Virus record (IMG/VR): IMGVR_UViG_3300032038_000022
Span: 1 to 64,000 of that record
Source: a virus
Lineage: Duplodnaviria; Caudoviricetes
Direction: 5' to 3' (one strand)
Length of the DNA: 64,000 nt
Below, piece after piece: positions 7,257 to 50,283 of this stretch (positions are counted from its first letter, which is position 1; every line of letters begins with the position of its first letter). The position numbers and the translations under genes were made by a program. The notes below the pieces were generated by a model, which did no database searches, was not told the DNA's origin, and worked only from the letters and a program-made list of their open reading frames with translations.

Positions 7257-7259
7257 TAT

Positions 7260-7535
7260 ATTGTGATACCTAGTCGAAAGATGCTGAACATAGCGCCCTT
7301 CGATTTATAGGTTAATAGATCAATTTACTAATGAAACAGTATTTATGGTTCAAAGGTTAAAGATCAAAAGCTGAAAGATGAAGGATAAAAGCTTATTTTG
7401 CTCAATAATGAGTGGTTCAAGATTAAAGACTCAGGTCTTAAAGCTTAATCAAATCCACGAATTAGTTCATCACGAAAGTGTAGGGGAAGCAGTTATGCCC
7501 CAGAATCTTGTACGTGGCTGACTAGGTAGCACAAT
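7260..7535 (+). ncRNA. ~276-nt putative ncRNA with long closing stem and periodic AAAG repeats
   Basis: ATTGTGATACCTAGTC (7260-7275) pairs with GACTAGGTAGCACAAT (7520-7535); CCACG/CGTGG inner stem; CAC-GAAA-GTG hairpin; about ten 7-8-nt AAAG-type units. Confidence 0.7.
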
Positions 7536-7540
7536 TTTAT

Positions 7541-7577
7541 AAACCCTTTGTAAGAGATTACATCGGGTTTCTTTTCA
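7541..7577 (+). terminator. Intrinsic terminator
   Basis: AAACCC..TGTAA-GAGA-TTACA..GGGTTT followed by CTTTT. Confidence 0.65.
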
Positions 7578-7824
7578 TTCCCTCAATTCCTTACATATGT
7601 ATGATTATTAAGAAAAGTGAAGATATAGTAGCATTTAATTGGCTATGTATAATTAATGAATATAATCCAGAAGAAGTAGAAGAAATAGAGATATGCAAAA
7701 GAAAATAGAGCAAGAAAAAGATGTTAAAATAGTGAGTGCTGTTTATACCTTCGTCGTTGATATAGCAAGGGTTCTACAAGGAAAAGGTTAGAATTCCTTT
7801 TCTTTCTTTTCCTTATTTGTGAAA

Positions 7825-12985: not shown

Positions 12986-13331
12986 TACTATATTCAAATG
13001 GGACGATAAGTTTAATATAATAAAAGAGGAGATTGAACAAATTCATCGAATTGGTAAATATACAGTTATATTCGTTCTTAAAGGAGAAATTAATCCATGC
13101 ACTGGAAAAATCTTTGTTACAAACTCACTTGGAGTTGGAGAAGTATCTATCCTTAACGGAAATCAATTTGATGAGTTTATGATGAATTTTGTAACCGAAG
13201 AAAGATTCTATACAACTGAGGAAGAGTGTAGAGAAGAAATGCAAACATTTATCTTTAGACAAATTCAAAGTATGGAAGATAAAGCTAAACACCTAAGAGA
13301 ATTATACGAAAAGAAAGAAGGGAGAAATTAA
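12942..13331 (+). CDS. Hypothetical protein
   Basis: FKDLKPGDTIF; ATG 12942 preferred. Confidence 0.65.
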   Translation: MAKSYKQFKDLKPGDTIFKWDDKFNIIKEEIEQIHRIGKYTVIFVLKGEINPCTGKIFVTNSLGVGEVSILNGNQFDEFMMNFVTEERFYTTEEECREEMQTFIFRQIQSMEDKAKHLRELYEKKEGRN

Positions 13332-15391
13332 TCTCCTTTCTTTTTTATTATTTCTATACCATTAACCCACTTACCAGACTGATTTTTTATTGTTGTAGAC
13401 TTAATTTCAAACCACTGTTCTAGATCTGTTGCTTTTGGTGTAGAGTTATATCCTAAGTTTTTATAAATCTTTCCTAATTTTTCTTTAATCTCTGATTTTG
13501 TATATTTTGATCCAGTTATAAAAGTTGCTGTAATCTCTTTAGTAATCTTAGGTTTAATGTATTGATTTTCATAACGTATTTTAAACTCTTTTTCTAAGTC
13601 TAACTTGCGATATTCTTTGCTCTTAATCTCCTTTACTGTAAATATAGTTAAATAATTCCTATAATCATCGGGAATAAGAGATAATATAATATTAAATTCA
13701 GTTTCATCTAGTATAGACCTTTGATCACATAAATATTTCATCTTGTCCGGAAAATTAGTAAATGCATTATTAAAATTACTTATTGTTGCATCTATTCTAT
13801 TTTTAGAAGAAGATGTACTATATTTCTCCCCTAGTCTAGAAAAGACACTAAAACGATCTTTGTAGTCATATTCTTGTATCTCAAAAGTCCTAAGTTCTGC
13901 TATCTGCATTAATTTATTAAATACTGGAATTATACTAGAGCCTGAATGATGATTTACTGCCACATAATCTCTTTTATAATTCGAATTTTTAGCATCAATT
14001 TCATATTTCTCTGCTAAAGATCCCCTAATCTCATCAGATGATGATTCAGAATAAGCTTGTAAAAGATTTTTAGTTTGTTTATCTTTTCTATTCATGTAGT
14101 CTATGAATTCTTGTTTAGAATTCTTATCATATCGTAAGGTAATATATAAATCAGCACTATTCTTCCATGGATTTTCATCTAATCTCTGTCTACCTAAAAT
14201 CTGTGGAAGATCCATTGAAATGTCCACTGATAAAGAATCAATATTAGCATTACTGAATATAAAACTTCTTGCGTTGGTGGAGTAAAAATCAGCACCTAAG
14301 TATACTGTTCTTGTACAGAAGGTAAACATTTTTCTCGGCTCATTTATTTTTGGAACTTTGCCTATATACTTAATTCCATCCTTTACCTTTCCACCAAATG
14401 CATGTCTAATTTGTTTCTCATTCTCTTTTGTATCAGCACATAAAACATTACATTGATCAATTGTAAGATTAGACCCTTTTATTGCTTTAGTAATATCTTT
14501 AACTGAATTAACATATATTACAGCTTCTTTGCTTTCTATTTGTTGAAGTAAACCATTTTCATCAGTATACTTATAAGTTTCAAACTTACCAGAAAGATAT
14601 GTTTGTATTATTTTCTTTATATTTGCTTGTATTGTATTCCCCTTGCCGCAATACTTTACATTTAAATTAGGTTTTATAATACAATCCCTATTCTCACTCT
14701 CCCAATCAAGTTCAAAATAAGGTAGATCTTTAAAATAATCTAACATTTCCAGATACTTAGTTAGCATTGGTGTAGCTGAAACGTAGCATACATGAGAAAG
14801 ATCCTTAACTTGCTCTACAAATTCTAATTCAGTATCTGACTTGAATTTGGCGTCAGTAAAAATGCTCTGAAATTCATCAATAACCACATAGAAGTCCTTA
14901 ATATCCTCCCCTAATACCTCTTTAACATGTCTGAAAGAATCATAAGTTACTAGGATTTTACAAGGTCTTCCTGGATTAAATGGAGAGGGTTGACAAGAAT
15001 AATAATAATCTAATATCCCCTGTTTTAGTTTCATTATTCTAGCTTTTTTATCATTGTCAGAGATCAGGCCAAGATTGCTTAATAAAATATTTCCATTATT
15101 TTTAGAAATTTTATCAATACTTAAGTCTTTTTCAAAATTAATTTGGTTCTCTACTTCATTTCTTACATAATAAACTTCTCCTTGGTGTTGGTCTTCCTTA
15201 TTCTCTAGTAGTATTCGTCTTGGACTGCATAAGATTACATTTTGAGAGTTTCTAATACAATACTCCGTTAGGCCACAACCAGTTAAAACTTTATTTAGAA
15301 TACATGGTTCACCAAAATTGAATAAATTAAATTCTTTCCAATCACTGATGTACCTAATTCCATTAGGCACAATTAATTTCTCTATCTTCAT
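13328..15391 (-). CDS. SF2-helicase-like / origin-binding-like protein, copy 1
   Basis: TGCGLTE (degenerate Walker A), DEFQ, SATP, TRTVYLGADFY, QILGRQR; start aligned to copy 2 (IVPNGIRYISDW). Confidence 0.75.
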   Translation of the reverse strand: MKIEKLIVPNGIRYISDWKEFNLFNFGEPCILNKVLTGCGLTEYCIRNSQNVILCSPRRILLENKEDQHQGEVYYVRNEVENQINFEKDLSIDKISKNNGNILLSNLGLISDNDKKARIMKLKQGILDYYYSCQPSPFNPGRPCKILVTYDSFRHVKEVLGEDIKDFYVVIDEFQSIFTDAKFKSDTELEFVEQVKDLSHVCYVSATPMLTKYLEMLDYFKDLPYFELDWESENRDCIIKPNLNVKYCGKGNTIQANIKKIIQTYLSGKFETYKYTDENGLLQQIESKEAVIYVNSVKDITKAIKGSNLTIDQCNVLCADTKENEKQIRHAFGGKVKDGIKYIGKVPKINEPRKMFTFCTRTVYLGADFYSTNARSFIFSNANIDSLSVDISMDLPQILGRQRLDENPWKNSADLYITLRYDKNSKQEFIDYMNRKDKQTKNLLQAYSESSSDEIRGSLAEKYEIDAKNSNYKRDYVAVNHHSGSSIIPVFNKLMQIAELRTFEIQEYDYKDRFSVFSRLGEKYSTSSSKNRIDATISNFNNAFTNFPDKMKYLCDQRSILDETEFNIILSLIPDDYRNYLTIFTVKEIKSKEYRKLDLEKEFKIRYENQYIKPKITKEITATFITGSKYTKSEIKEKLGKIYKNLGYNSTPKATDLEQWFEIKSTTIKNQSGKWVNGIEIIKKKGD

Positions 15392-15496
15392 AATATATAA
15401 TTTTAAAATATTAAGAGAAACCCTAGAATACTTCACCTTTATTATTGTTCTCTAGTTTTTCTCTTTCATACATAAGGACTTGAGAGGATCTAGAAG

Positions 15497-15650
15497 GCAA
15501 AATCTCATTTATTTTTTTCCCATTTTAAAAATAATCCTATAAAGGAGAGAAAGATATAAAAAATAAATGAACTTTTTCTACCTTATTCCCTCACTCCACT
15601 TCGTTCCGTTCGGTCAATGATAAAGTTCTAGGAGTCTTATTCAATAGCGT
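15497..15650. mobile_element. Conserved non-coding end of helicase-like cassette, copy 1
   Basis: GCAAAA, then inverted repeat TCATTTATTTTTT/AAAAAATAAATGA, then 40-mer at 15579-15618 (37/40 identical to 46734-46773), then GTCTTAT.CAA.AGC. Confidence 0.5.
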
Positions 15651-16039
15651 AGCTGCCAAAGCGTTAAACGAAGAGGGTTAAACGAGGGACGGACTTTGTC
15701 CCGAGTCCCGATGAGTAGCTTTGGAATGCTTCTTACACAGAGCCGGGGTGGGAGCGTTAAGTGGAATGAGGAATGAAGTGACGAATGTAGCAAGCGAGTG
15801 GCGGATGGAATCCGGGCAGGCCGGATTAATAAAAGACATTAGAAACTCTCAACGGTCAAGAAAAAAAATAGAGAGTCTTATACTCTATTTATATAATATT
15901 TAACTAATAAGACTCTCCACTAGCGACTGCTAATAATCAACGATCCTTTATCCAAATATAAGTATCTATTATTTATTATCATTAATTATATTAATTTTAT
16001 TATCATTTAGGATCTACCACCATATTTTATTTAATATGT

Positions 16040-18361
16040 TTATGGCTGATTATTAGTATCCACCCTGTCTTCGAGGACAGTTTTGTAGTAGGAAGAACTA
16101 TTATTCTCTTTAGTTCTTTCCATGTGTTCAAGGGTAAGTTGGTTACCAAACTTATCGATGAACTCTAGAAACTTACTTCGACTCATGGCGCCATGTTCTC
16201 CAAGATAAAGGCCCATTTTTCTAATAAGTTTTTTCTCAGAGAATAAGTTTTTGTAAGTTTCATCTTTTAACTCATCCCATCTAGTTCTCATAGCTTCTTC
16301 TAGAGTACATTCATGGTTCTTATAGATTAGTTTTGAGTGTAATCCAAAGCCTGAAGACATACCGTTTCCGGTTTCCTCTACTTCGAAGTTAGAGAATGAC
16401 ATAGGTTCAAAATATCCGACTCTTAGTACTGCTAAGGATAGTGATTTCCATGCTGATCTAATATCGTTACTAGATCCTAAGAGGCACCTTTCTGGTCTAT
16501 CGCCTCCATAGATTAATTGTTCAGCAAGGTATCCGCCAAAAGATATCATAATATCATTATCTACATCAGCTTTACATTCTATTTCTCCTTCTTTTTCAGG
16601 ATCATAAGTACTACAGAACCCACCTTTATCAGTAGACACTGCCACTATATTTTGTGGTGCTTTGCCTGTAAGAAGTGCCATCATAATAGCATGTCCGGAT
16701 TCATGAACTCCGCTAATAAATCGTGTAGCTCTTGATGTAGGATTCCTAAGTGACCCAAGTTGTAATTTATAATCATATTCTACTACCCTTCCGTCTTGGA
16801 ACGTAAGTATTATTGTAGTTGTAGGTACTTTAAACTCACGGTCTGTCCAATCAGATTTATCTTTAATATCAATACTAACCCTAGTATCATCTTCTTTCAT
16901 ATTGATTAATATTTCAGAGAAATATGGGGTTAGCATTGATCCAATAGTAGTAAAGATGGGTCGTACACCTTGAGTAGGATATACACCTTCCGCATAGAGT
17001 AGGTTATAAATTTCTTCACTAACAATTACTTCTAGATTAGGAGCAACAGTTTTAAAGTCTTTTATAATTCTCTCTACTTCCAGTCTAATAATTTTTTCGA
17101 AGTGAACTTTCTTCATCGTTGGATACTTGATCATATTATTTCCTATTCTAGCGATTTGTTCTGCTCTAAAGCGCTGTGTTAGTGCTTCTTTGATATCAGA
17201 GACAGTTACTTTGCTAGTAATATCATTAAATATGTCAGCGTCCATATCAGGATTAAGTTCATCTTCGACGCCAAAAGCTTCATCAAGATTTCCAATAATA
17301 AATACCAGACATCTTGAACAGTTGAGAGTCTTAGGAGAATTACAAATCTTAGTTACATTTTTTAAGATTTTGTAAACTTCAAGGACAGTCTCAGCTGAAT
17401 AAAGATCTTGAATAGTTTTTTTACTTAGTTCAAAATCAACAGAATTCAGTCGTTTTACTATAGTTTTAATCTGGCTAATAGGAACTAGTTTTAGAGGTCT
17501 ATAAGGATCTTTTTTCTTTTTACTTGTATCCTCTTCTAGTTCTTCCATAGAAGATCGATTTATAATATGACTTTCTTCTTCATCTTCACCATCGTAATCA
17601 ACCTCTTCCTGTTCATTAGGTTTTGCTGTTTCGCCTGTAGGGATATTAATTTTTCTTTCAAGACTTGGAATTTCACGCCATGGATAGACGTAACATCCAA
17701 TATTCTCTAAGATTTCCTTAATATCATTTGGGTCAGTAATTACATTTTCTTTTACCCTAATTCCAGGATATTTTTTTGCGAAAGGTTCCAGATCTTCCAA
17801 GAATGAACAGAACTTATTATAGTCATAATTATAAGTATCTGTTAGATCAAGGTTGCCATCATCAATAATTTTCCAAATGGGTCTTAAGCTACTTTTAACT
17901 ACTTCCTCATGTTGTTCATTAAGTGTTCTGGCATACTGAAACTCATCAAAAATGTATACAAGATCTTGAGCCATATCCTCATTTGCTTTTCCAAGAGAGC
18001 TAGGATCTTCTGAATCAACCCCAAGAATTTCACAGGTTTGATTAATAATACTATTAATACTATTATTATCAGACCCTGCTTCTCGTCCACAGTCAAAATA
18101 GAGGGTTTTGTTATTAATTTTCAATAATTCTGTTAATCTTTTCACAACAGAGCTTTTACCAGTACCAGTCATTCCAAATAGACTTACGATAACTGGTCTT
18201 TTTATAACCTCTGGAGTTATATACCAAGGTTTCACTGATTTCATAATCTCATCAATAACGTCATCCAGTCCTACAAATTCTTTTTTAAGGATTTCTGTAG
18301 CGGACTTTAGAGTATTAATTCGATCCTGTCGTGAAAGTTGAATCTCTTCTTTCTCTAACAT
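16040..18361 (-). CDS. Clp-like AAA+ ATPase fused to an FtsH/M41-type zinc protease domain
   Basis: GMTGTGKS, IFDEFQ, RFRAEQIARIG, GVRP; C-terminal HESGH...GGYLAE...GS..D; no TM segment. Confidence 0.8.
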   Translation of the reverse strand: MLEKEEIQLSRQDRINTLKSATEILKKEFVGLDDVIDEIMKSVKPWYITPEVIKRPVIVSLFGMTGTGKSSVVKRLTELLKINNKTLYFDCGREAGSDNNSINSIINQTCEILGVDSEDPSSLGKANEDMAQDLVYIFDEFQYARTLNEQHEEVVKSSLRPIWKIIDDGNLDLTDTYNYDYNKFCSFLEDLEPFAKKYPGIRVKENVITDPNDIKEILENIGCYVYPWREIPSLERKINIPTGETAKPNEQEEVDYDGEDEEESHIINRSSMEELEEDTSKKKKDPYRPLKLVPISQIKTIVKRLNSVDFELSKKTIQDLYSAETVLEVYKILKNVTKICNSPKTLNCSRCLVFIIGNLDEAFGVEDELNPDMDADIFNDITSKVTVSDIKEALTQRFRAEQIARIGNNMIKYPTMKKVHFEKIIRLEVERIIKDFKTVAPNLEVIVSEEIYNLLYAEGVYPTQGVRPIFTTIGSMLTPYFSEILINMKEDDTRVSIDIKDKSDWTDREFKVPTTTIILTFQDGRVVEYDYKLQLGSLRNPTSRATRFISGVHESGHAIMMALLTGKAPQNIVAVSTDKGGFCSTYDPEKEGEIECKADVDNDIMISFGGYLAEQLIYGGDRPERCLLGSSNDIRSAWKSLSLAVLRVGYFEPMSFSNFEVEETGNGMSSGFGLHSKLIYKNHECTLEEAMRTRWDELKDETYKNLFSEKKLIRKMGLYLGEHGAMSRSKFLEFIDKFGNQLTLEHMERTKENNSSSYYKTVLEDRVDTNNQP

Positions 18362-42219: not shown

Positions 42220-42907
42220 TTAATAGGTCCCTTTTATTTTTGCTCTTTTCCAATTCTTAGTCCAATGTTCATCCGTAACAACATGATTTGGTCTAACATA
42301 CTTAAAGACATTATTCCTAAAATTGGATGTACTAAACTCATTTATATTTCTAACTACAATGCCTTCCATAGTACATTTTTCTCCCGTTATAGGATTATAA
42401 GAATCAAAAATACTACTAGATCGTGAAATCTCTAATACTTTTTCTTCCACTTCTATTGGAGAAAATATACCTAATACTGGAACACATGGAAATCCAAAGT
42501 ATTCTGCATACCACCGAACTTCATTCCAACTTAGCCATAAATCTTTATCATTATCCCTAACAGCAAACATATAAAATAATGATGAAAGATTTTTTATATT
42601 CAATACTATGAATTCCTTCTAAATTTTCTCCAAAAAGTTCAATATTTTCAGGTAAATCGAATTGTTTAAGAGTCCACTGCTGTCTAATCCATGATGTCCA
42701 AGGTGTTGTTGTAGGGGCTGCATGCGATCTAGCATAAACGCCATTTCTCGATAAACATGTATCTTCACCATCTAACTTCTCAGTAAATACTAACTGGTTT
42801 ATAGATTGACAATCCTTTATCCAATTATGATTTATTCTATCATCCTTTGTAGCTCCTGGACTAAAGGGAAAATGATAAGTTCTTCCATATTTATCAGTTT
42901 GTGGCAT
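42220..42907 (-). pseudogene. RNA ligase (Rnl2-like family) split by a one-base insertion in an A6 tract
   Basis: KY.RT.H.P.SPG...DD, TEKLDG, GEN...HSIEY in the first ORF; F..FAV, VPVL, EGIVVR, KYVR..HV.TD.HW in the second. Confidence 0.85.
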
Positions 42908-44515: not shown

Positions 44516-44545
44516 ATCACAAATAAGGAAAAGAAAGAGGAGAAA

Positions 44546-46555
44546 TTAATCTCCCTTCTTTTTTATTATCTCAAAACCATGAATTCTTTTACCATTTTCA
44601 GACAACAATACAGACTTTAATTCAAACCACTGTTCTAGATCTGTTGCTTTTGCTGTCTTTTTATAACCTAAAGATGAATACAACGTTGATAAGTTTTGTT
44701 TTATACTGTCTTTACTTAATCTATCACCAATATTAAACATCTTGTATACCTCAACATTAATTAATAGTGGATTAAAAGATACTACATTAAGTTCTTTGTT
44801 AAGTAAATTAATATTATACCCTAAACTTCTACATCTATCCGGACCAATGACAGTATAATATTCCCTAAAGTGCTTTTCTGAAATTTGACCAAGTATATAA
44901 TCTATATTAGAGGATTGATAATTACATAAGTACTTTAATTTATCATAAAGATTAGGCAAAGACTCATATATTATCATAAAGTTTTTCACTTCTTCATCCC
45001 TGGAGCTAAGAGATTGTATATTGGTATCTAGTGCACTGAATACACTAAAACGGTCTTTATAATCTATCTGTTGTATGTCATATGCCCTCTGTTCAGCTAT
45101 TAAGACAAGATTATTCTGCAATGGTTGAAATAACCATAAATTACTCTCAGGATTAAAGACTCGATTTACAGAAACATAATCATCTTTATAACTACTATTA
45201 TTAGCGTCCTTTTCATATTTCTCCGCTAAATCCTCTTTAGTATATTCTGGACTATATGAATAAGCATCTAATAGATTTTGCGTTTTCTTTAACTTCTTTT
45301 TAATCTCATCATCAAACTGTTCCTTCGCCTTTTGCTTATCCAATGCTATAGGTTTGTAATAAAATTCTGCACTATTCTTCCATGGGTTTTCTATTAATCT
45401 CTGTCTACCTAAAATCTGTGGTAAGTCTAAGGAAATATCAACAGCAAGTGTTTCAATATTAGCATCACTTATTACAAATGTTCTGGCACATGTAGAGTAA
45501 AAATCAGCTCCTAAGTATACTGTTCGAGTGCAAAAAGTGAAGGTTTTATGTTTCTCACCTCTAAGAGGTACCTTACCAATAGTGAATTTCTTACCAATTT
45601 TACGTGTTATTCTCTTCTGGTTTTCAGGTGTATTAGCACATAATATGTTTACATCTTCAGGTAATAATCCACTTTTCTTAATAATACAGCAGATATTATT
45701 AACGGAATTGACATAAAACACTGCTTCTTTACTTTCTACACATTCCGCTTTACCATTAGAACCAATACGATAGAACTTCTCGTATTGTCCATTTTTATAC
45801 TTCTCGATAATCTCTTTTGCTGTAGTAAATACACTTTTTGAATGTCTTACTATTAAATTAGGTTTCATAACACGATTAGGATCTTTTATACACCAATCTA
45901 GTTCAAAATAAGGTAGATCTTTAAACTCATCAAGACGATCTAAATACTCTTCCATCATCGGTGTTGCTGAAACGAAACATACCCTTTGAATTCCCTGAAC
46001 GTAAGACATAAATTTAAGCTCTGTTGAGGCTTTGAATCTACTGTCTGTAAAAATGCTCTGAAATTCATCAATAATAATACGAAATATAGAAAGTTCTGAA
46101 TGATATGCTAAAATATCTCTTACTAAGTTAAATGAATCATAAGTAACTAGAATTTTAGCAGGTTTTCCCATAGATCTTCTGGACTTAATATATTCCATAA
46201 TCATTATTGTCAATTTATTAAAGAATTCCTTCTTCTGTTCTTCTGTTGGTACAAAAGTATCTGGCTTAAATACAGACTTACCCCTAATTGATAGATCCCT
46301 TCCAGCATCTATAATTCTCTCATAATCATTCACTACATAAAACACGTCCCCTAGATGTTGTTCACTTTTGTTCTGTAATAAAATCTTACGCGGTGAACAT
46401 AAAACTACATTTTCATTATTCATAATAGCCCATTCAGTAAAACCACAACCAGGAATTTGTTTGTCTAGTATGTGTGGAAAGTTAGGTAGAGAAAAATTTA
46501 ACCACTCAGAAATATATCTAATTCCCGCTGGCACTTCTATTATTTGTTTTTTCAT
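44546..46555 (-). CDS. SF2-helicase-like / origin-binding-like protein, copy 2
   Basis: PGCGFTE, DEFQ, SATP, TRTVYLGADFY, QILGRQR; C-terminal KATDLEQWFE...EIIKKKGD shared with copy 1. Confidence 0.75.
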   Translation of the reverse strand: MKKQIIEVPAGIRYISEWLNFSLPNFPHILDKQIPGCGFTEWAIMNNENVVLCSPRKILLQNKSEQHLGDVFYVVNDYERIIDAGRDLSIRGKSVFKPDTFVPTEEQKKEFFNKLTIMIMEYIKSRRSMGKPAKILVTYDSFNLVRDILAYHSELSIFRIIIDEFQSIFTDSRFKASTELKFMSYVQGIQRVCFVSATPMMEEYLDRLDEFKDLPYFELDWCIKDPNRVMKPNLIVRHSKSVFTTAKEIIEKYKNGQYEKFYRIGSNGKAECVESKEAVFYVNSVNNICCIIKKSGLLPEDVNILCANTPENQKRITRKIGKKFTIGKVPLRGEKHKTFTFCTRTVYLGADFYSTCARTFVISDANIETLAVDISLDLPQILGRQRLIENPWKNSAEFYYKPIALDKQKAKEQFDDEIKKKLKKTQNLLDAYSYSPEYTKEDLAEKYEKDANNSSYKDDYVSVNRVFNPESNLWLFQPLQNNLVLIAEQRAYDIQQIDYKDRFSVFSALDTNIQSLSSRDEEVKNFMIIYESLPNLYDKLKYLCNYQSSNIDYILGQISEKHFREYYTVIGPDRCRSLGYNINLLNKELNVVSFNPLLINVEVYKMFNIGDRLSKDSIKQNLSTLYSSLGYKKTAKATDLEQWFELKSVLLSENGKRIHGFEIIKKKGD

Positions 46556-46656
46556 AATTATTATTGTTTTTTTTAAATTTACTCTTATAGATAACCTAGC
46601 CTCAAAACTCGCCTAGGTTAACATTCAAACATAAGGCTTTCAATACTGAAATATGA

Positions 46657-46806
46657 GCAAAAGTGTACCATTTTATTAGCAAATTTTCGGAAAATGTAAA
46701 GAATACTTATATCTTCAAAAAATGGTACATCTTTACCTTATTCCATCACTCCACTTCGCTTCGTTCGGTCAATATCACAATCTATCTCTGGGTCTTATAC
46801 AAGAGC
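46657..46806. mobile_element. Conserved non-coding end of helicase-like cassette, copy 2
   Basis: GCAAAA, then inverted repeat TGTACCATTTT/AAAATGGTACA, then 40-mer at 46734-46773, then GTCTTATACAAGAGC. Confidence 0.5.
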
Positions 46807-47062
46807 TTTAATTAAAGATGAAACCCCGACAACGACCGAGTTTTTTGAGGTCGTATTAGGGGTGGAATCTAAATAATATGTTTCCTTAGGCGCGAAAAAA
46901 TAGTACAGAAAAAAGAAGATATAACCTTTTGGTATTATATCTTCTCCAAGTGTTCGCCAGTTAGTTTTAACTTAGTCTCGTATGAATGGTTGATAGTATT
47001 CCTCTGGCTATAGAAATTTCTATCTTTCACTATTAAGGATTTAGAAAGAAGGAAAATTAAAG

Positions 47063-47133
47063 TTGGAGTACCAGGATTCGAACCTGGAAGTACAGAACCA
47101 AAATCTGTTGTGTTACCATTACACTATACTCCA
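47063..47133 (-). tRNA. tRNA-Gln(TTG)
   Basis: TGGAGTA/TACTCCA acceptor, ACAGA-TTTTGGT-TCTGT, CCAGG-TTCGAAT-CCTGG. Confidence 0.95.
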
Positions 47134-47684: not shown

Positions 47685-47921
47685 AATAATAAAATTAAGT
47701 AGACTATAAAAATCTAAGTCTACTATTTTAAGGAATTAAGGTCCAATATTTATTTTTCCAGTCTTCAAAAGACGTTTCATTCTCCAAGTAAGATTATAGA
47801 GATCTATGTATATGGGAAGGGATTCCGATATCATATTTCCTATATTTTTTTTAAATTAAAAGGGTGTGGCTCGGACCTATCTCACTCCGAATAGAGTTCT
47901 CGTTCAATTTGGCCAATCGAG

Positions 47922-47940
47922 CTCACACCAGAAGATAAAT
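47922..47940. repeat. 19-bp direct repeat CTCACACCAGAAGATAAAT, copy 1 of 3
   Basis: Exact copies at 47922-47940, 49187-49205 and 50516-50534. Confidence 0.9.
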
Positions 47941-47950
47941 AGCTGAAGGG

Positions 47951-49024
47951 TTAAAGTGCAAAAAACGCCCTAACTCGACAGGTAGCAGTCGTATCAGACT
48001 TAGTGTAGGTGTATAAGTGACCGCTATACGTATGCACGTTCCTAACACTCGTAGAAGAGTTCCCAGTACTGGACCAACACCAGTGGCCATAAGCAGTATC
48101 TCGACCCATTTCAATTGCGATTGAATTACCCCAAACACTCTTAACAGCATTCAGACCAGCATTAATTGCTCCATATCTAGCAGTTATAAATGCTAATTCT
48201 CCGCACGCAGGAAGATACCAATCACCAACATTAGTACCAGTTGTATGGAATCGATAACAAGTCATAGCTGCCGGATAATTTCCAGAAGCTCCTGTATTTT
48301 CTATACTGCTTGCAGTCTTCCAATCAGTACCACTAACTGCAGCTAAGATTTTGTCAGTATTACTTCTTCCGTCAAAATCATTAGTAGCCATATTATCAGC
48401 ATAGTAAATTATATTTTTACTTCCATCTGGTAGGATAGGATTAGGTCCAAATCTTATTTCCCCATCAGAACCAATTGAAGAATCATAGTTACCAAAGTAA
48501 TAATCTCCAGATGGATCTATAGTACCAGTGTCATTAAAGGCAGTGTCACTAGGTATTCTTACCCAATCAGTTGCTCCACCGAGTTCACCAGTTTTTCCAT
48601 TTACATAATTTACTAAGCTATAATTTTTAAGATTTGCAACATCTACATTTGGACCCCATCTAAGATTTAGGTTATCACTTACATTACCATTACTTGTTGA
48701 TGTTGTTCCAACTTCGGGAGTTGTACAGCTCATATTTACAAGAGACATAATACGTGTAGTGTAATCTGGAGAATAGTTATATGGGACTGCAACAACTCCA
48801 ATTGGTGTCAAATGTGCATAATGAAATCCATTATTCTTATAGCTACCTGAACTCATGAATTCTATACTTTGTGTTTTAGAGTTATATAATGCTACGTCAC
48901 CAAAGGATGTTTTTGGGTATGGATTATAGTAGCACTTTCCCTCCACTAAGTCAATACCTGGAGTTGATATTTTATCAGCTTTACTCCAAGCATCTTTTGT
49001 ATCAAAACTTCTTAAATAATTCAT
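47951..49024 (-). CDS. DUF1566/CLec-fold putative receptor-binding protein, copy 1 (DGR-target-like)
   Basis: FDG..NT, WYLPA.GEL, WSS, VRAF; start MNYLRS as in copy 2. Confidence 0.8.
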   Translation of the reverse strand: MNYLRSFDTKDAWSKADKISTPGIDLVEGKCYYNPYPKTSFGDVALYNSKTQSIEFMSSGSYKNNGFHYAHLTPIGVVAVPYNYSPDYTTRIMSLVNMSCTTPEVGTTSTSNGNVSDNLNLRWGPNVDVANLKNYSLVNYVNGKTGELGGATDWVRIPSDTAFNDTGTIDPSGDYYFGNYDSSIGSDGEIRFGPNPILPDGSKNIIYYADNMATNDFDGRSNTDKILAAVSGTDWKTASSIENTGASGNYPAAMTCYRFHTTGTNVGDWYLPACGELAFITARYGAINAGLNAVKSVWGNSIAIEMGRDTAYGHWCWSSTGNSSTSVRNVHTYSGHLYTYTKSDTTATCRVRAFFAL

Positions 49025-49040
49025 AATTTTCAATAGAATA

Positions 49041-49205
49041 TTCACCATTCTTTGTAATGATGATCTTATTTCCGTATAGTATATTATATTCCTTGCGTTT
49101 GAAAATCTTATTTTCTTCTGCGAAAAACTTCTTTATGTCCATTACCCTAATAAAAGATTTATATAGAGATTAACAAAGCATATCATCTCACACCAGAAGA
49201 TAAAT
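49041..49205. repeat. ~165-bp near-identical direct repeat of 50370-50534
   Basis: Contains a copy of the 3' end of the 50471-50968 gene and most of the 57-aa ORF. Confidence 0.9.
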
Positions 49206-49215
49206 AGTTGAAGGG

Positions 49216-50283
49216 TTAAAGTGCAAAAAACGCCCTAACTCGATAGTCAGCATCCGTAACGAATTTAGTGTCGGGACACACGTAACCAAGACTCGTATTC
49301 ACTTCCCAAGCAGCCAAACCAGAGAACCCAGAACTAGACCAATAACAGTCGCCATAAGCAGTATCTCGACCCATTTCAATTGCGCTTGAACTACCCCAAA
49401 CACTCTTAACAGCATTCAAACCAGCATTAATCGCTCCATATCTAACAGTTATAAATGCTAATTCTCCGACTGCAGGAAGATACCAATCACCAACATTAGT
49501 ACCAGTTGTATGGAATCGATAACAGGTCATAACTGCCGGATAATTTCCAGGAGTTGCTGTATTTTCTATACTACTTGCTGTCTTCCAATCAGTACCACTA
49601 ACTGCAGTTAAGATTTTGTCAGTATTACCTCTTCCATCAAAATCATTAGTAGCCTTATTATCAGCATAGTAAATTATATTTTTACTTCCATCTGGTAGGA
49701 TAGGATTAGGACCAAAGGGCATATCCTCATCAGTACCAGTTGAAGAATCATAGTTAAGAGAGTAATAATCTCCAGATGGATCTATAGTACCAGTGTCATT
49801 AAAGGCAGTGTCACTAGGAAGTCTTACTGAATCAAACTCTCCCTGTAGTTCACCGGTATTTCCATTGACATAATTATTTACGGTATAATGTTTAAGAATA
49901 TCTACATTTGAACCCCAGCTAAGATTTAGGTTATCACTTACGTCACCATCACTTGTTGCTGTTGTTCCAACCTCAGGAGTTGTACAGCTCATATTTACAA
50001 GAGACATAATACGTGTAGTGTAATCTGGAGAATAGTTATATGGAACTGCAACAACTCCAATTGGTGTCAAATGTGCATAATGAAATCCATTATCCTTATA
50101 GCTATCTGCACTCATGAATTCTATACTTTGTGTTTTAGAGTTATATAATGCTATATCACCAAAAGATGTTTCTGGATATGGATTATAGTAGCACTTTCCC
50201 TCCACTAAGTCAATACCAGGAGTTGATATTTTATCAGCTTTACTCCAAGCATCTTTTGTATCAAAACTTCTTAAATAATTCAT
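49216..50283 (-). CDS. DUF1566/CLec-fold putative receptor-binding protein, copy 2 (DGR-target-like)
   Basis: Near-identical to copy 1 except internal patches and the C-terminal ~38 codons. Confidence 0.8.
   Translation of the reverse strand: MNYLRSFDTKDAWSKADKISTPGIDLVEGKCYYNPYPETSFGDIALYNSKTQSIEFMSADSYKDNGFHYAHLTPIGVVAVPYNYSPDYTTRIMSLVNMSCTTPEVGTTATSDGDVSDNLNLSWGSNVDILKHYTVNNYVNGNTGELQGEFDSVRLPSDTAFNDTGTIDPSGDYYSLNYDSSTGTDEDMPFGPNPILPDGSKNIIYYADNKATNDFDGRGNTDKILTAVSGTDWKTASSIENTATPGNYPAVMTCYRFHTTGTNVGDWYLPAVGELAFITVRYGAINAGLNAVKSVWGSSSAIEMGRDTAYGDCYWSSSGFSGLAAWEVNTSLGYVCPDTKFVTDADYRVRAFFAL

Follow-up and report, generated by a model that had tools for sequence, protein, structure and literature searches.

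Concerted change of DNA boxes and predicted winged-helix tails at paralogous helicase-like genes of a Caudoviricetes genome: candidate initiator/origin-like modules

We analyzed a 64,000-nt stretch of virus DNA (the window), which comprises bases 1-64000 of the 118,859-bp IMG/VR virus record IMGVR_UViG_3300032038_000022 (Caudoviricetes), with regard to two genes, hel1 (13328-15391, minus strand, 687 aa) and hel2 (44546-46555, minus strand, 669 aa), that encode paralogous superfamily 2 (SF2) helicase-like proteins, and to the non-coding DNA adjoining them. The two proteins share 46% identity over their full length, and a third paralog, hel3, lies outside the window at record positions 102334-104370, the three being ~46% identical. 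Comparison with related sequences showed that the wing of the C-terminal tail and short DNA boxes beside the gene change in concert, and that each paralog has its own matched pair of wing and box. We suggest that each hel gene and its adjoining DNA might be one of several matched, mutually orthogonal initiator/origin-like modules, which would work like UL9-oriS or P4 alpha while being a member of neither system; our judgment on this proposal is evenly divided between right and wrong. The sequence-only reading that preceded this analysis had taken the same genes for either a selfish cassette or duplicated origin/initiator modules.

The relatives used for comparison came from gut- or rumen-type metagenomes, with contigs of 200-430 kb. 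In three of them (L167, L168, and L170), the ~620 nt upstream of hel2 were 97% identical to the window, and the differences were concentrated in the boxes. Both arms of the hel2 inverted repeat, TGTACCATTTT and AAAATGGTACA, had become GTGGAATATTTT and AAAATATTCCA (GTACCAT to GGAATAT), and a third box at 46895-46907 was likewise rewritten, reading TGGAATATTTTTT in L167. The hel2 ortholog of these relatives was 96% identical, and 9 of its 25 protein differences fell within residues 646-659, which constitute the wing, where LKSVLLSENGKRIH was replaced by IKEIQWRENGKKIA; at the nucleotide level, the 100-nt bin holding the wing had 24 differences, compared with an average of ~5. The promoter-like stretch next to these boxes was unchanged between the window and L167/L168 while the boxes themselves differed. 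In the hel1 ortholog of L171, wing (hel1, STTIKNQSGKWVNG) and boxes were both unchanged, and hel3 and L167 had the wing QWRENGK and the box AAGTGGAA in common.

A survey of 69 non-redundant relatives agreed with this pattern. Where wings were identical or nearly so, the box was shared even if the paralog backgrounds differed; for example, L060 and L055, whose cores were only 68% identical, both combined the wing KNSSIYExGKK with the box AACAGAAC. The box ACAACTT was common to L019, L057, and L009, and ATGCATA to L010, L011, L013, and L018. On the other hand, pairs with cores 80-97% identical and differing boxes had tails only 16-60% identical, and among pairs with a core identity of 0.75-0.93, the box was shared by 1% of those with a tail identity <0.7 vs. 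21% of those at 0.7-0.9. Whatever the function, these wing/box pairs represent a natural library of dozens of specificities on one scaffold, from which orthogonal DNA-binding parts might be drawn.

On the gene strand, the module runs from the terminator of the upstream gene or tRNA through a box, a GC-rich element, a 40-mer, a second box, and a spacer of 40-44 bp to an inverted box, followed by a gene-proximal part with TTTTGC, ~22 nt, TATG(T/A)(T/A)TG, a short leader, and the ATG. Each box consists of a specific word of 6-8 nt and then a T run. In the hel1 box module (15499-15576, no strand assigned; 82% A+T), the inverted boxes, which have the core TCATTTATTTTTT, occupy 15499-15517 and 15558-15576 and enclose a 40-bp spacer; these 19-nt arms, 40 nt apart, are 89% complementary. 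The hel2 box module (46659-46734, no strand assigned; 76% A+T) has its boxes around a 44-bp spacer, with 16-nt arms (46659-46674 and 46719-46734) that are 44 nt apart and 88% complementary. The earlier observation that the inverted repeats are copy-specific in sequence and keep their pairing was therefore upheld by these figures. The third hel2 box (46895-46907, minus strand) is a direct copy, TGTACTATTTTTT, upstream of the GC-rich element E2. Compared with other 76-nt stretches of the record, the A+T content of the box modules (76-82%) was at the 92nd-99th percentile, that of hel1 at the 99.4th, and the GC-rich elements directly beside them (51-59% A+T) were at the 0.4-6th A+T percentile. Repeated boxes beside an AT-rich region were thus found adjoining the hel gene.

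The 40-mer next to the boxes (hel1 copy, 15579-15618; hel2 copy, 46734-46773; both minus strand) was 37/40 identical between the two genes (blastn-short E ~1e-9). The 3' half of the hel1 copy forms the closing arm of the GC-rich element and the copy contains the wider motif GAACGAAGTG; it can pair over 20 nt with 15759-15778 at 80% complementarity, so that both the sharing of the 40-mer and its pairing near 15760, noticed before, were confirmed. Its 25-nt core had two sites only in the 118,859-bp record, and the search of record and relatives that had been proposed found the 40-mer elsewhere only at orthologs of hel1 and hel2; the exact 40-mer was not found, with up to 5 mismatches allowed, at the loci of 80 relatives. 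The motif GAACGAAGTG was common to the lineage of the window and distant lineages and was enriched ~11-fold upstream of the relatives' hel genes.

A promoter-like stretch lies before each gene, for hel1 at 15467-15502 (minus strand; TTTTGC at 15497-15502, ~22 nt, and TATGTATG at 15467-15474) and for hel2 at 46626-46662 (minus strand; TTTTGC at 46657-46662, ~23 nt, and TATGTTTG at 46626-46633). Distant relatives likewise have TTTTGC and words like CTTAT(G/A)TATG ahead of their hel genes, and the stretch probably acts as a promoter. A sigma-54 or sigma-70 reading of TTTTGC was rejected owing to unsuitable spacing, and a Bacteroidota-type -33/-7 reading would fit it partly. The proximal box stood 0-2 nt from TTTTGC, in the window as well as in relatives, and, within the record, no exact box was found away from the locus of its gene; both facts would suit a protein that does nothing at these sites except autoregulation. 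The boxes would then be the operator of the gene's own promoter, the motor would act elsewhere, for example in repair or recombination, and the spacer and GC-rich element would be ordinary promoter-upstream or terminator DNA. Plasmid initiators commonly repress their own genes via inverted repeats. We consider this explanation unlikely, since it leaves unexplained the third box beyond the structured element of 120-260 nt, the two convergent box modules downstream of hel3, where there is no gene to control, the fact that the GC-rich dyad is tightly linked to the gene and covaries, and the capture of the tail by homing-type nucleases (the latter two described below). Exact boxes were confined to the cognate locus within the 119-kb record, which argues that the protein is not a regulator of many promoters.

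The initiator/origin proposal also draws on the protein itself. The family to which hel1 and hel2 belong comprises >5,000 metagenomic clusters, which carry no annotation beyond "hypothetical", with several paralogs per contig of 300-400 kb. For hel1 and hel2, no family match was obtained in Pfam, PHROGs, NCBIfam, or PADLOC, and phmmer against PDB sequences gave no match at E up to 1. Motif II (DEFQS), motif III (SATP), and motif VI (QILGRQR) were invariant in 27 aligned sequences. Motif I, GCGLTE in hel1 and GCGFTE in hel2, had no lysine; the 27 aligned members all had PGCG(F/L/Y)TE there, the homolog of phage Phab24 had GCGAT, and the canonical Walker A GxGK(T/S) was not found. The previous description of two diverged paralogs with SF2 motifs and no Walker A lysine was accordingly right. 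A lysine four residues upstream of the P-loop (K32 in hel2) was invariant, and might substitute for the absent one. The AlphaFold model of hel2 (predicted local distance difference test, pLDDT, 81) contained two tandem RecA-like domains, a generic SF2 helicase core, which was matched to BLM and RecQ1 by Foldseek (E 5e-9) and to Prp2, DinG, and DbpA by VIA-align (Z 17.8, 16.9, and 16.3, respectively). The start of hel1 was taken from the open reading frame (ORF) and from alignment to hel2 and the relatives' N-termini: ATG 15391 matches the N-termini of the homologs, while the longer ORF from GTG 15436 does not.

The cultured Acinetobacter phage Phab24 encodes a full-length homolog, id070 (25% identity, E 9e-32), annotated as hypothetical, which is a possible experimental model for the family. 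In Phab24 (L169, MZ477002.1 39208-40138), id070 comes after a divergent non-coding gap of 0.9 kb, in which the TACACATA word occurs twice as a direct and once as an inverted copy, along with AAAAGCAAAA repeats. In at least 10 assemblies of ~360 kb (L025, L028, L035, L037-L042, L016/L121), one paralog group was located no more than a few kb from the contig end, and one contig had a paralog copy at each end, both pointing inward; these could be real genome ends or assembly breaks at repeats.

The C-terminal tail has ~75 residues and, according to DSSP on both models, the topology a1-b1-a2-a3-b2-b3; modelled alone, it reached a pLDDT of 88. The fold comparison proposed for this domain was productive in part: Foldseek on the tail alone returned nothing significant, and VIA-align gave a consistent list in which nearly all best matches were winged helices, including the DNA-binding domain of RFX1 (Z 6.0, root mean square deviation 2.7 Å over 66 residues), RFX5 (5.0), NrS-1 (5.0), the origin-binding domain of phage P4 (1ka8, 4.1), and Cdt1 and MCM8 (~4). 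We claim the winged-helix fold class for the tail on the basis of these models. An alignment of 28 tails showed that the scaffold and helix 3 (PKAxDLExYF) were conserved, and that the beta-hairpin wing was hypervariable in both sequence and length. In RFX1, it is the wing, not helix 3, that reads the major groove. The hel tail resembles RFX1 in that it is the wing that varies with the box and helix 3 that is conserved, the binding mode of hel being putative; it differs in its low sequence identity (8%), and RFX1 is a eukaryotic transcription factor.

Evidence on what the tail may bind came from neighboring genes. In relatives, the ORF right after hel was often a T5orf172/MUG113 (GIY-YIG-type) nuclease that ended in a hel-type tail. 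The wing of the nuclease matched another hel allele, for example the L080 type in L017:5025-6452, the L060 type in L036:5019-6035, and the L026 type in L073:5008-6054; a homing nuclease directed against rival alleles would need just such a wing. As the tail serves a DNA nuclease, it most likely binds DNA. No nuclease with a hel-type tail was found in the window or the 119-kb record. A comparable case is known from ICP1 and PLE, where Odn of ICP1 is a T5orf172 nuclease that captured the origin-binding domain of an initiator, and where the DNA-binding domain of the initiator RepA covaries with the origin and is swapped as a module (PMC8263062). Similarly, the hel wing covaries with its boxes, and T5orf172 nucleases of relatives carry the hel-type tail. 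In contrast, the RepA_N domain of PLE has an unrelated fold and is N-terminal in a non-helicase initiator, and the hel gene and nuclease both occur within the same phage lineage.

The GC-rich elements are the second structured part of the module. E1 (15619-15835, minus strand) is 51% A+T, and E2 (46774-46893, minus strand) is shorter and has another center. Both, together with the 40-mer, hold GTCTTATxCAAxAGC, the word that had been seen upstream of each gene. The core of E1 (15630-15824, ~205 nt) recurs in inverted orientation and at 96% identity at record 101880-102075, downstream of hel3; a template/variable repeat pair of a diversity-generating retroelement (DGR) was rejected for the two copies, as their differences were not adenine-specific. 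Around it, at record 101856-102330, there are also a diverged 40-mer and two tandem box modules (AATGCAC and AAGTGGAAC), which lie downstream of hel3 in convergent orientation. In a large clade of relatives, the element is a dyad-symmetric unit of ~215 nt with two inverted hairpin units around an AT-rich center. All 78 occurrences of this dyad lay 0-400 nt upstream of a hel gene, and none was found elsewhere in the sampled flanks. Its hairpins covaried, with 98.2% of cells paired vs. 42-58% in slid controls, 9 compensatory pairs, and an observed score that was reached by 0 of 500 shuffles. The folding energy of the GC-rich parts was no better than that of shuffles (z -1.0 to 0); hence, the case for structure must rest on comparison.

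Wobble pairs in the relatives' dyads were biased to the hel-sense strand (35 G-U cells vs. 6 C-A cells), which suggests that the element acts as a single strand, RNA or DNA. Moreover, the element was constant between L164 and L165 while the boxes changed, and would thus serve a function common to all modules. It could provide an origin transcript or primer, or alternatively an ssi-type single-strand priming signal, between which we cannot decide. The same data raise the question of whether RNA is the center of the system, the GC-rich element being a separate structured RNA or a long leader and hel an RNA- or R-loop-dependent ATPase acting on it. DbpA and its cognate hairpin, as well as T4 UvsW and R-loops at origins, are precedents. 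Besides the wobble bias, a C-to-T change in L135 that keeps pairing on the hel-sense strand only, the ~94% conservation of E1 in L135/L083 although the adjoining protein is 60% identical, a TAnnTTTTT word ahead of the element in several lineages, and the DEAH-/DEAD-box RNA helicases among the best VIA-align matches of the core would be in line with this. Nevertheless, we hold it to be quite improbable: the wing covaries with the boxes and not with the GC-rich element, which is identical in L164 and L165; relatives have DNA nucleases with the tail fused to them; G-T wobble is tolerated in single-stranded DNA hairpins too; and the unremarkable folding energies give it no help. Rfam 15 yielded no match at the gathering threshold and chance-level miRNA-type matches only at E up to 10, so known RNA families (riboswitch, T-box, or other) upstream of the genes were rejected.

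Whether the genes are mobile or fixed was judged from their contexts. Over 10 kb of context, the hel2 locus is syntenic with L167, save for a DGR reverse transcriptase and Avd gene lost from the window, and hel1 is syntenic in L171. Since the paralogs are only ~46% identical, the duplications are old. In some relatives, the gene and its upstream region appeared as a unit: the gene with ~490 nt upstream was the only alignable part between L017 and L019, and between L055 and L062 it diverged most, its flanks there being 95-97% identical. The hel gene and upstream region thus behave as an exchangeable allele in relatives. Such observations, together with the 205-nt E1 core found twice at 96% identity in different contexts and the T5orf172 homing-type nucleases that accompany the gene in relatives, could be taken for a selfish mobile cassette whose gene and ends move by an unknown transposition or homing mechanism. 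We regard this as very improbable. The age of the duplications and the synteny of hel1 and hel2 in close relatives speak against it, as does the lack of any transposase, integrase, HUH, or recombinase domain in searches with Pfam, PHROGs, NCBIfam, and PADLOC, in agreement with what had been noted from the letters. No bracketing terminal repeats were found, inverted repeats being present upstream of the genes only, and no tail-sharing nuclease partner exists in the 119-kb record. The search for empty sites and target duplications, by which the cassette could have been recognized, revealed neither; that for empty sites with the aldolase-like neighbor gave no matches and was underpowered, and a single-protein locus search gave no matches. 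Recombination, perhaps nuclease-driven, explains the mosaic better than transposition, as an exchange of alleles needs no transposition. Of the selfish-cassette idea, transposition thus found no support in these old, syntenic paralogs, and what stood was an exchangeable allele, often with a homing-type nuclease next to it.

Taken together, these results led us to propose the following mechanism for the initiator/origin-like modules. Each hel gene and its adjoining non-coding DNA would form a matched protein-site module, in which the protein consists of a two-RecA SF2 motor without the P-loop lysine, a helical middle, and a winged-helix tail. First, the conserved scaffold of the tail, with helix 3, would contact the T/A tract common to all boxes, leaving recognition of the 6-8 variable bases to the wing, in an RFX1-like mode. 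Second, two inverted boxes would bracket the AT-rich spacer of 40-50 bp, with a third box and the GC-rich element on its far side, and the protein on the inverted boxes would melt or remodel the spacer. Third, DNA replication would start at the melted spacer, and the GC-rich hairpins would provide the single-strand priming signal or the origin transcript. The same binding might also control the gene's own promoter, and the phage would carry several orthogonal initiator/origin pairs. The fold, the boxes, their change in concert with the wing, and the restriction of each box to its own locus are results of the analysis; origin function, spacer melting, and DNA binding by the tail are what we infer here. 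Topoisomerase II genes after hel in L164 and L165 were counted in favor of the proposal.

Several known systems share parts of this layout. At oriS of HSV-1, inverted recognition boxes for UL9 (the origin-binding protein, OBP) flank an AT-rich spacer, the hairpin form of the origin is bound as well, and the DNA-binding domain of OBP has ~316 residues (536-851) and reads DNA via the RVKNL motif (PMC12543377). Like UL9, hel has an N-terminal SF2-type motor, a putative C-terminal DNA-binding domain, and inverted boxes around an AT-rich spacer. Unlike UL9, its tail is a predicted winged helix of ~75 residues with a hypervariable wing, and the RVKNL domain of ~300 residues was not found; UL9 keeps a canonical Walker A, whereas the hel family lacks the lysine, and UL9 is single-copy, whereas hel has several paralogs, each with private boxes. 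No sequence similarity between hel and UL9 was detectable by phmmer against PDB sequences, and the OBP structures 9HGI and 9HGJ were outside the best 50 of 993 aligned chains, an absence that leaves distant kinship possible. The likeness to UL9 may therefore be read as functional analogy only. The initiator reading put forward earlier, with a copy-specific inverted repeat, hence fits the covariation of box and wing, the winged tail, and the AT/GC layout, while the kinship with UL9 was not found.

P4 alpha is similar in being a motor protein whose C-terminal winged helix binds repeated sites at its own origin (the match to 1ka8, Z 4.1, is weak), but it is a superfamily 3 (SF3) helicase with a primase domain, and no primase domain was seen in hel. 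The oriV of RSF1010 has an AT-rich region next to the GC-rich, hairpin-forming, strand-specific ssiA and ssiB. In the same way, the hel module has an AT-rich region beside a GC-rich, hairpin-forming element. The sites differ from those of iteron origins, as hel2 has two inverted boxes and one direct box and not tandem iterons.

Several points weigh against an origin function of the modules. First, cumulative GC skew turned at 13-14 kb, 26 kb, and 42 kb, off the non-coding modules; since the skew tracks gene orientation and transcription, it is uninformative about origins. Second, three to six or more origins per phage genome would be unusual. Third, the Walker A lysine is absent family-wide, including in cultured Phab24, which makes ATPase or helicase activity uncertain, and the modest Z values of the tail (at most 6.0) justify a claim to the fold class only. 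Fourth, the proposed linkage of 40-mer and module to the gene was realized in part: hel1 and hel2 are each paired with a module, and hel3 has no module upstream and two differing modules downstream, so one-to-one pairing is not strict. Fifth, L148 showed a mismatch of box and wing, with an L018-type upstream region and an L146-type tail; it looks like a recent recombinant. Finally, with the proximal box directly adjoining the promoter-like word of the gene, the linkage could be explained by autoregulation alone.

The modules would bear on how huge phages with genomes of 300-400 kb start their replication. Should they be origins, a phage system with multiple origins and multiple initiators would be proposed here for the first time, and it would be a bacterial-virus counterpart of herpesvirus UL9-oriS. 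A broader and more doubtful possibility is that huge phages fire several origins, each by its own lysine-less SF2 paralog whose RFX-like wing reads a private word, wing and word being rewritten together, between genomes 97% identical in other respects, under attack by tail-stealing T5orf172 nucleases. If this was true, wings and words would make up a protein-DNA recognition code that can be read and that evolves through an arms race directed at origins.

The record is 32% complete according to CheckV, which implies a phage genome of roughly 370 kb; its G+C content is ~32%, and its genes have no Shine-Dalgarno sequences. The neighbors of hel1 and hel2 include an FtsH-like protease, an aldolase-like protein, an RNA ligase, and proteins of unknown type. 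The FtsH-like gene (AAA+/peptidase M41 protease, 773 aa, 16040-18361) is directly upstream of the hel1 module, and its terminator is the hairpin GAGAGTCTTAT...ATAAGACTCTC with a T run at 15871-15917 (minus strand), of which the word GAGTCTTAT recurs in E1 at 15632-15640. On the hel2 side, the upstream limit of the non-coding region is a tRNA-Gln(TTG) gene (47062-47133, minus strand). At their other ends, both genes finish in the same terminator-like hairpin, read from the letters as GGAGAT-TAA-TTTCTCC at 13321-13336 (minus strand) over the hel1 stop and at 44539-44554 (minus strand) over the hel2 stop; GGAGATTAATTTCTCC spans the TAA stop in both cases, as had been described.

Some further features of the window and record were also observed. 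The DGR remnant occupies 47685-50283, where Lcl_C-like (C-type-lectin-type) ends are present on the genes at 47951-49048 and 49216-50283. In L167 (L167:891-2815), bAvd and the reverse transcriptase lie between the first Lcl_C-like gene and a 176-aa gene; the window keeps ~60 nt of the 3' end of the reverse transcriptase gene (47739-47798), as well as a GC-rich hairpin immediately behind the target gene. The RNA ligase gene (42220-42893) is split or frameshifted, with a 127-aa ORF followed by 290 nt that are still coding-like, and is intact with 228 aa in L167. In a non-coding stretch of 560 nt at 7257-7818, GC-rich pockets occur together with an inverted repeat of long range, TGTGATACCTAGTC ... 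GACTAGGTAGCACA; the stretch gave no Rfam match at E up to 1, and could be an intron-like or other structured RNA. Outside the window, record positions 107326-107699 and 108156-108555 are intergenic in a simple ORF map and yet coding-like, which may reflect frameshifts, a missed start, or recoding.

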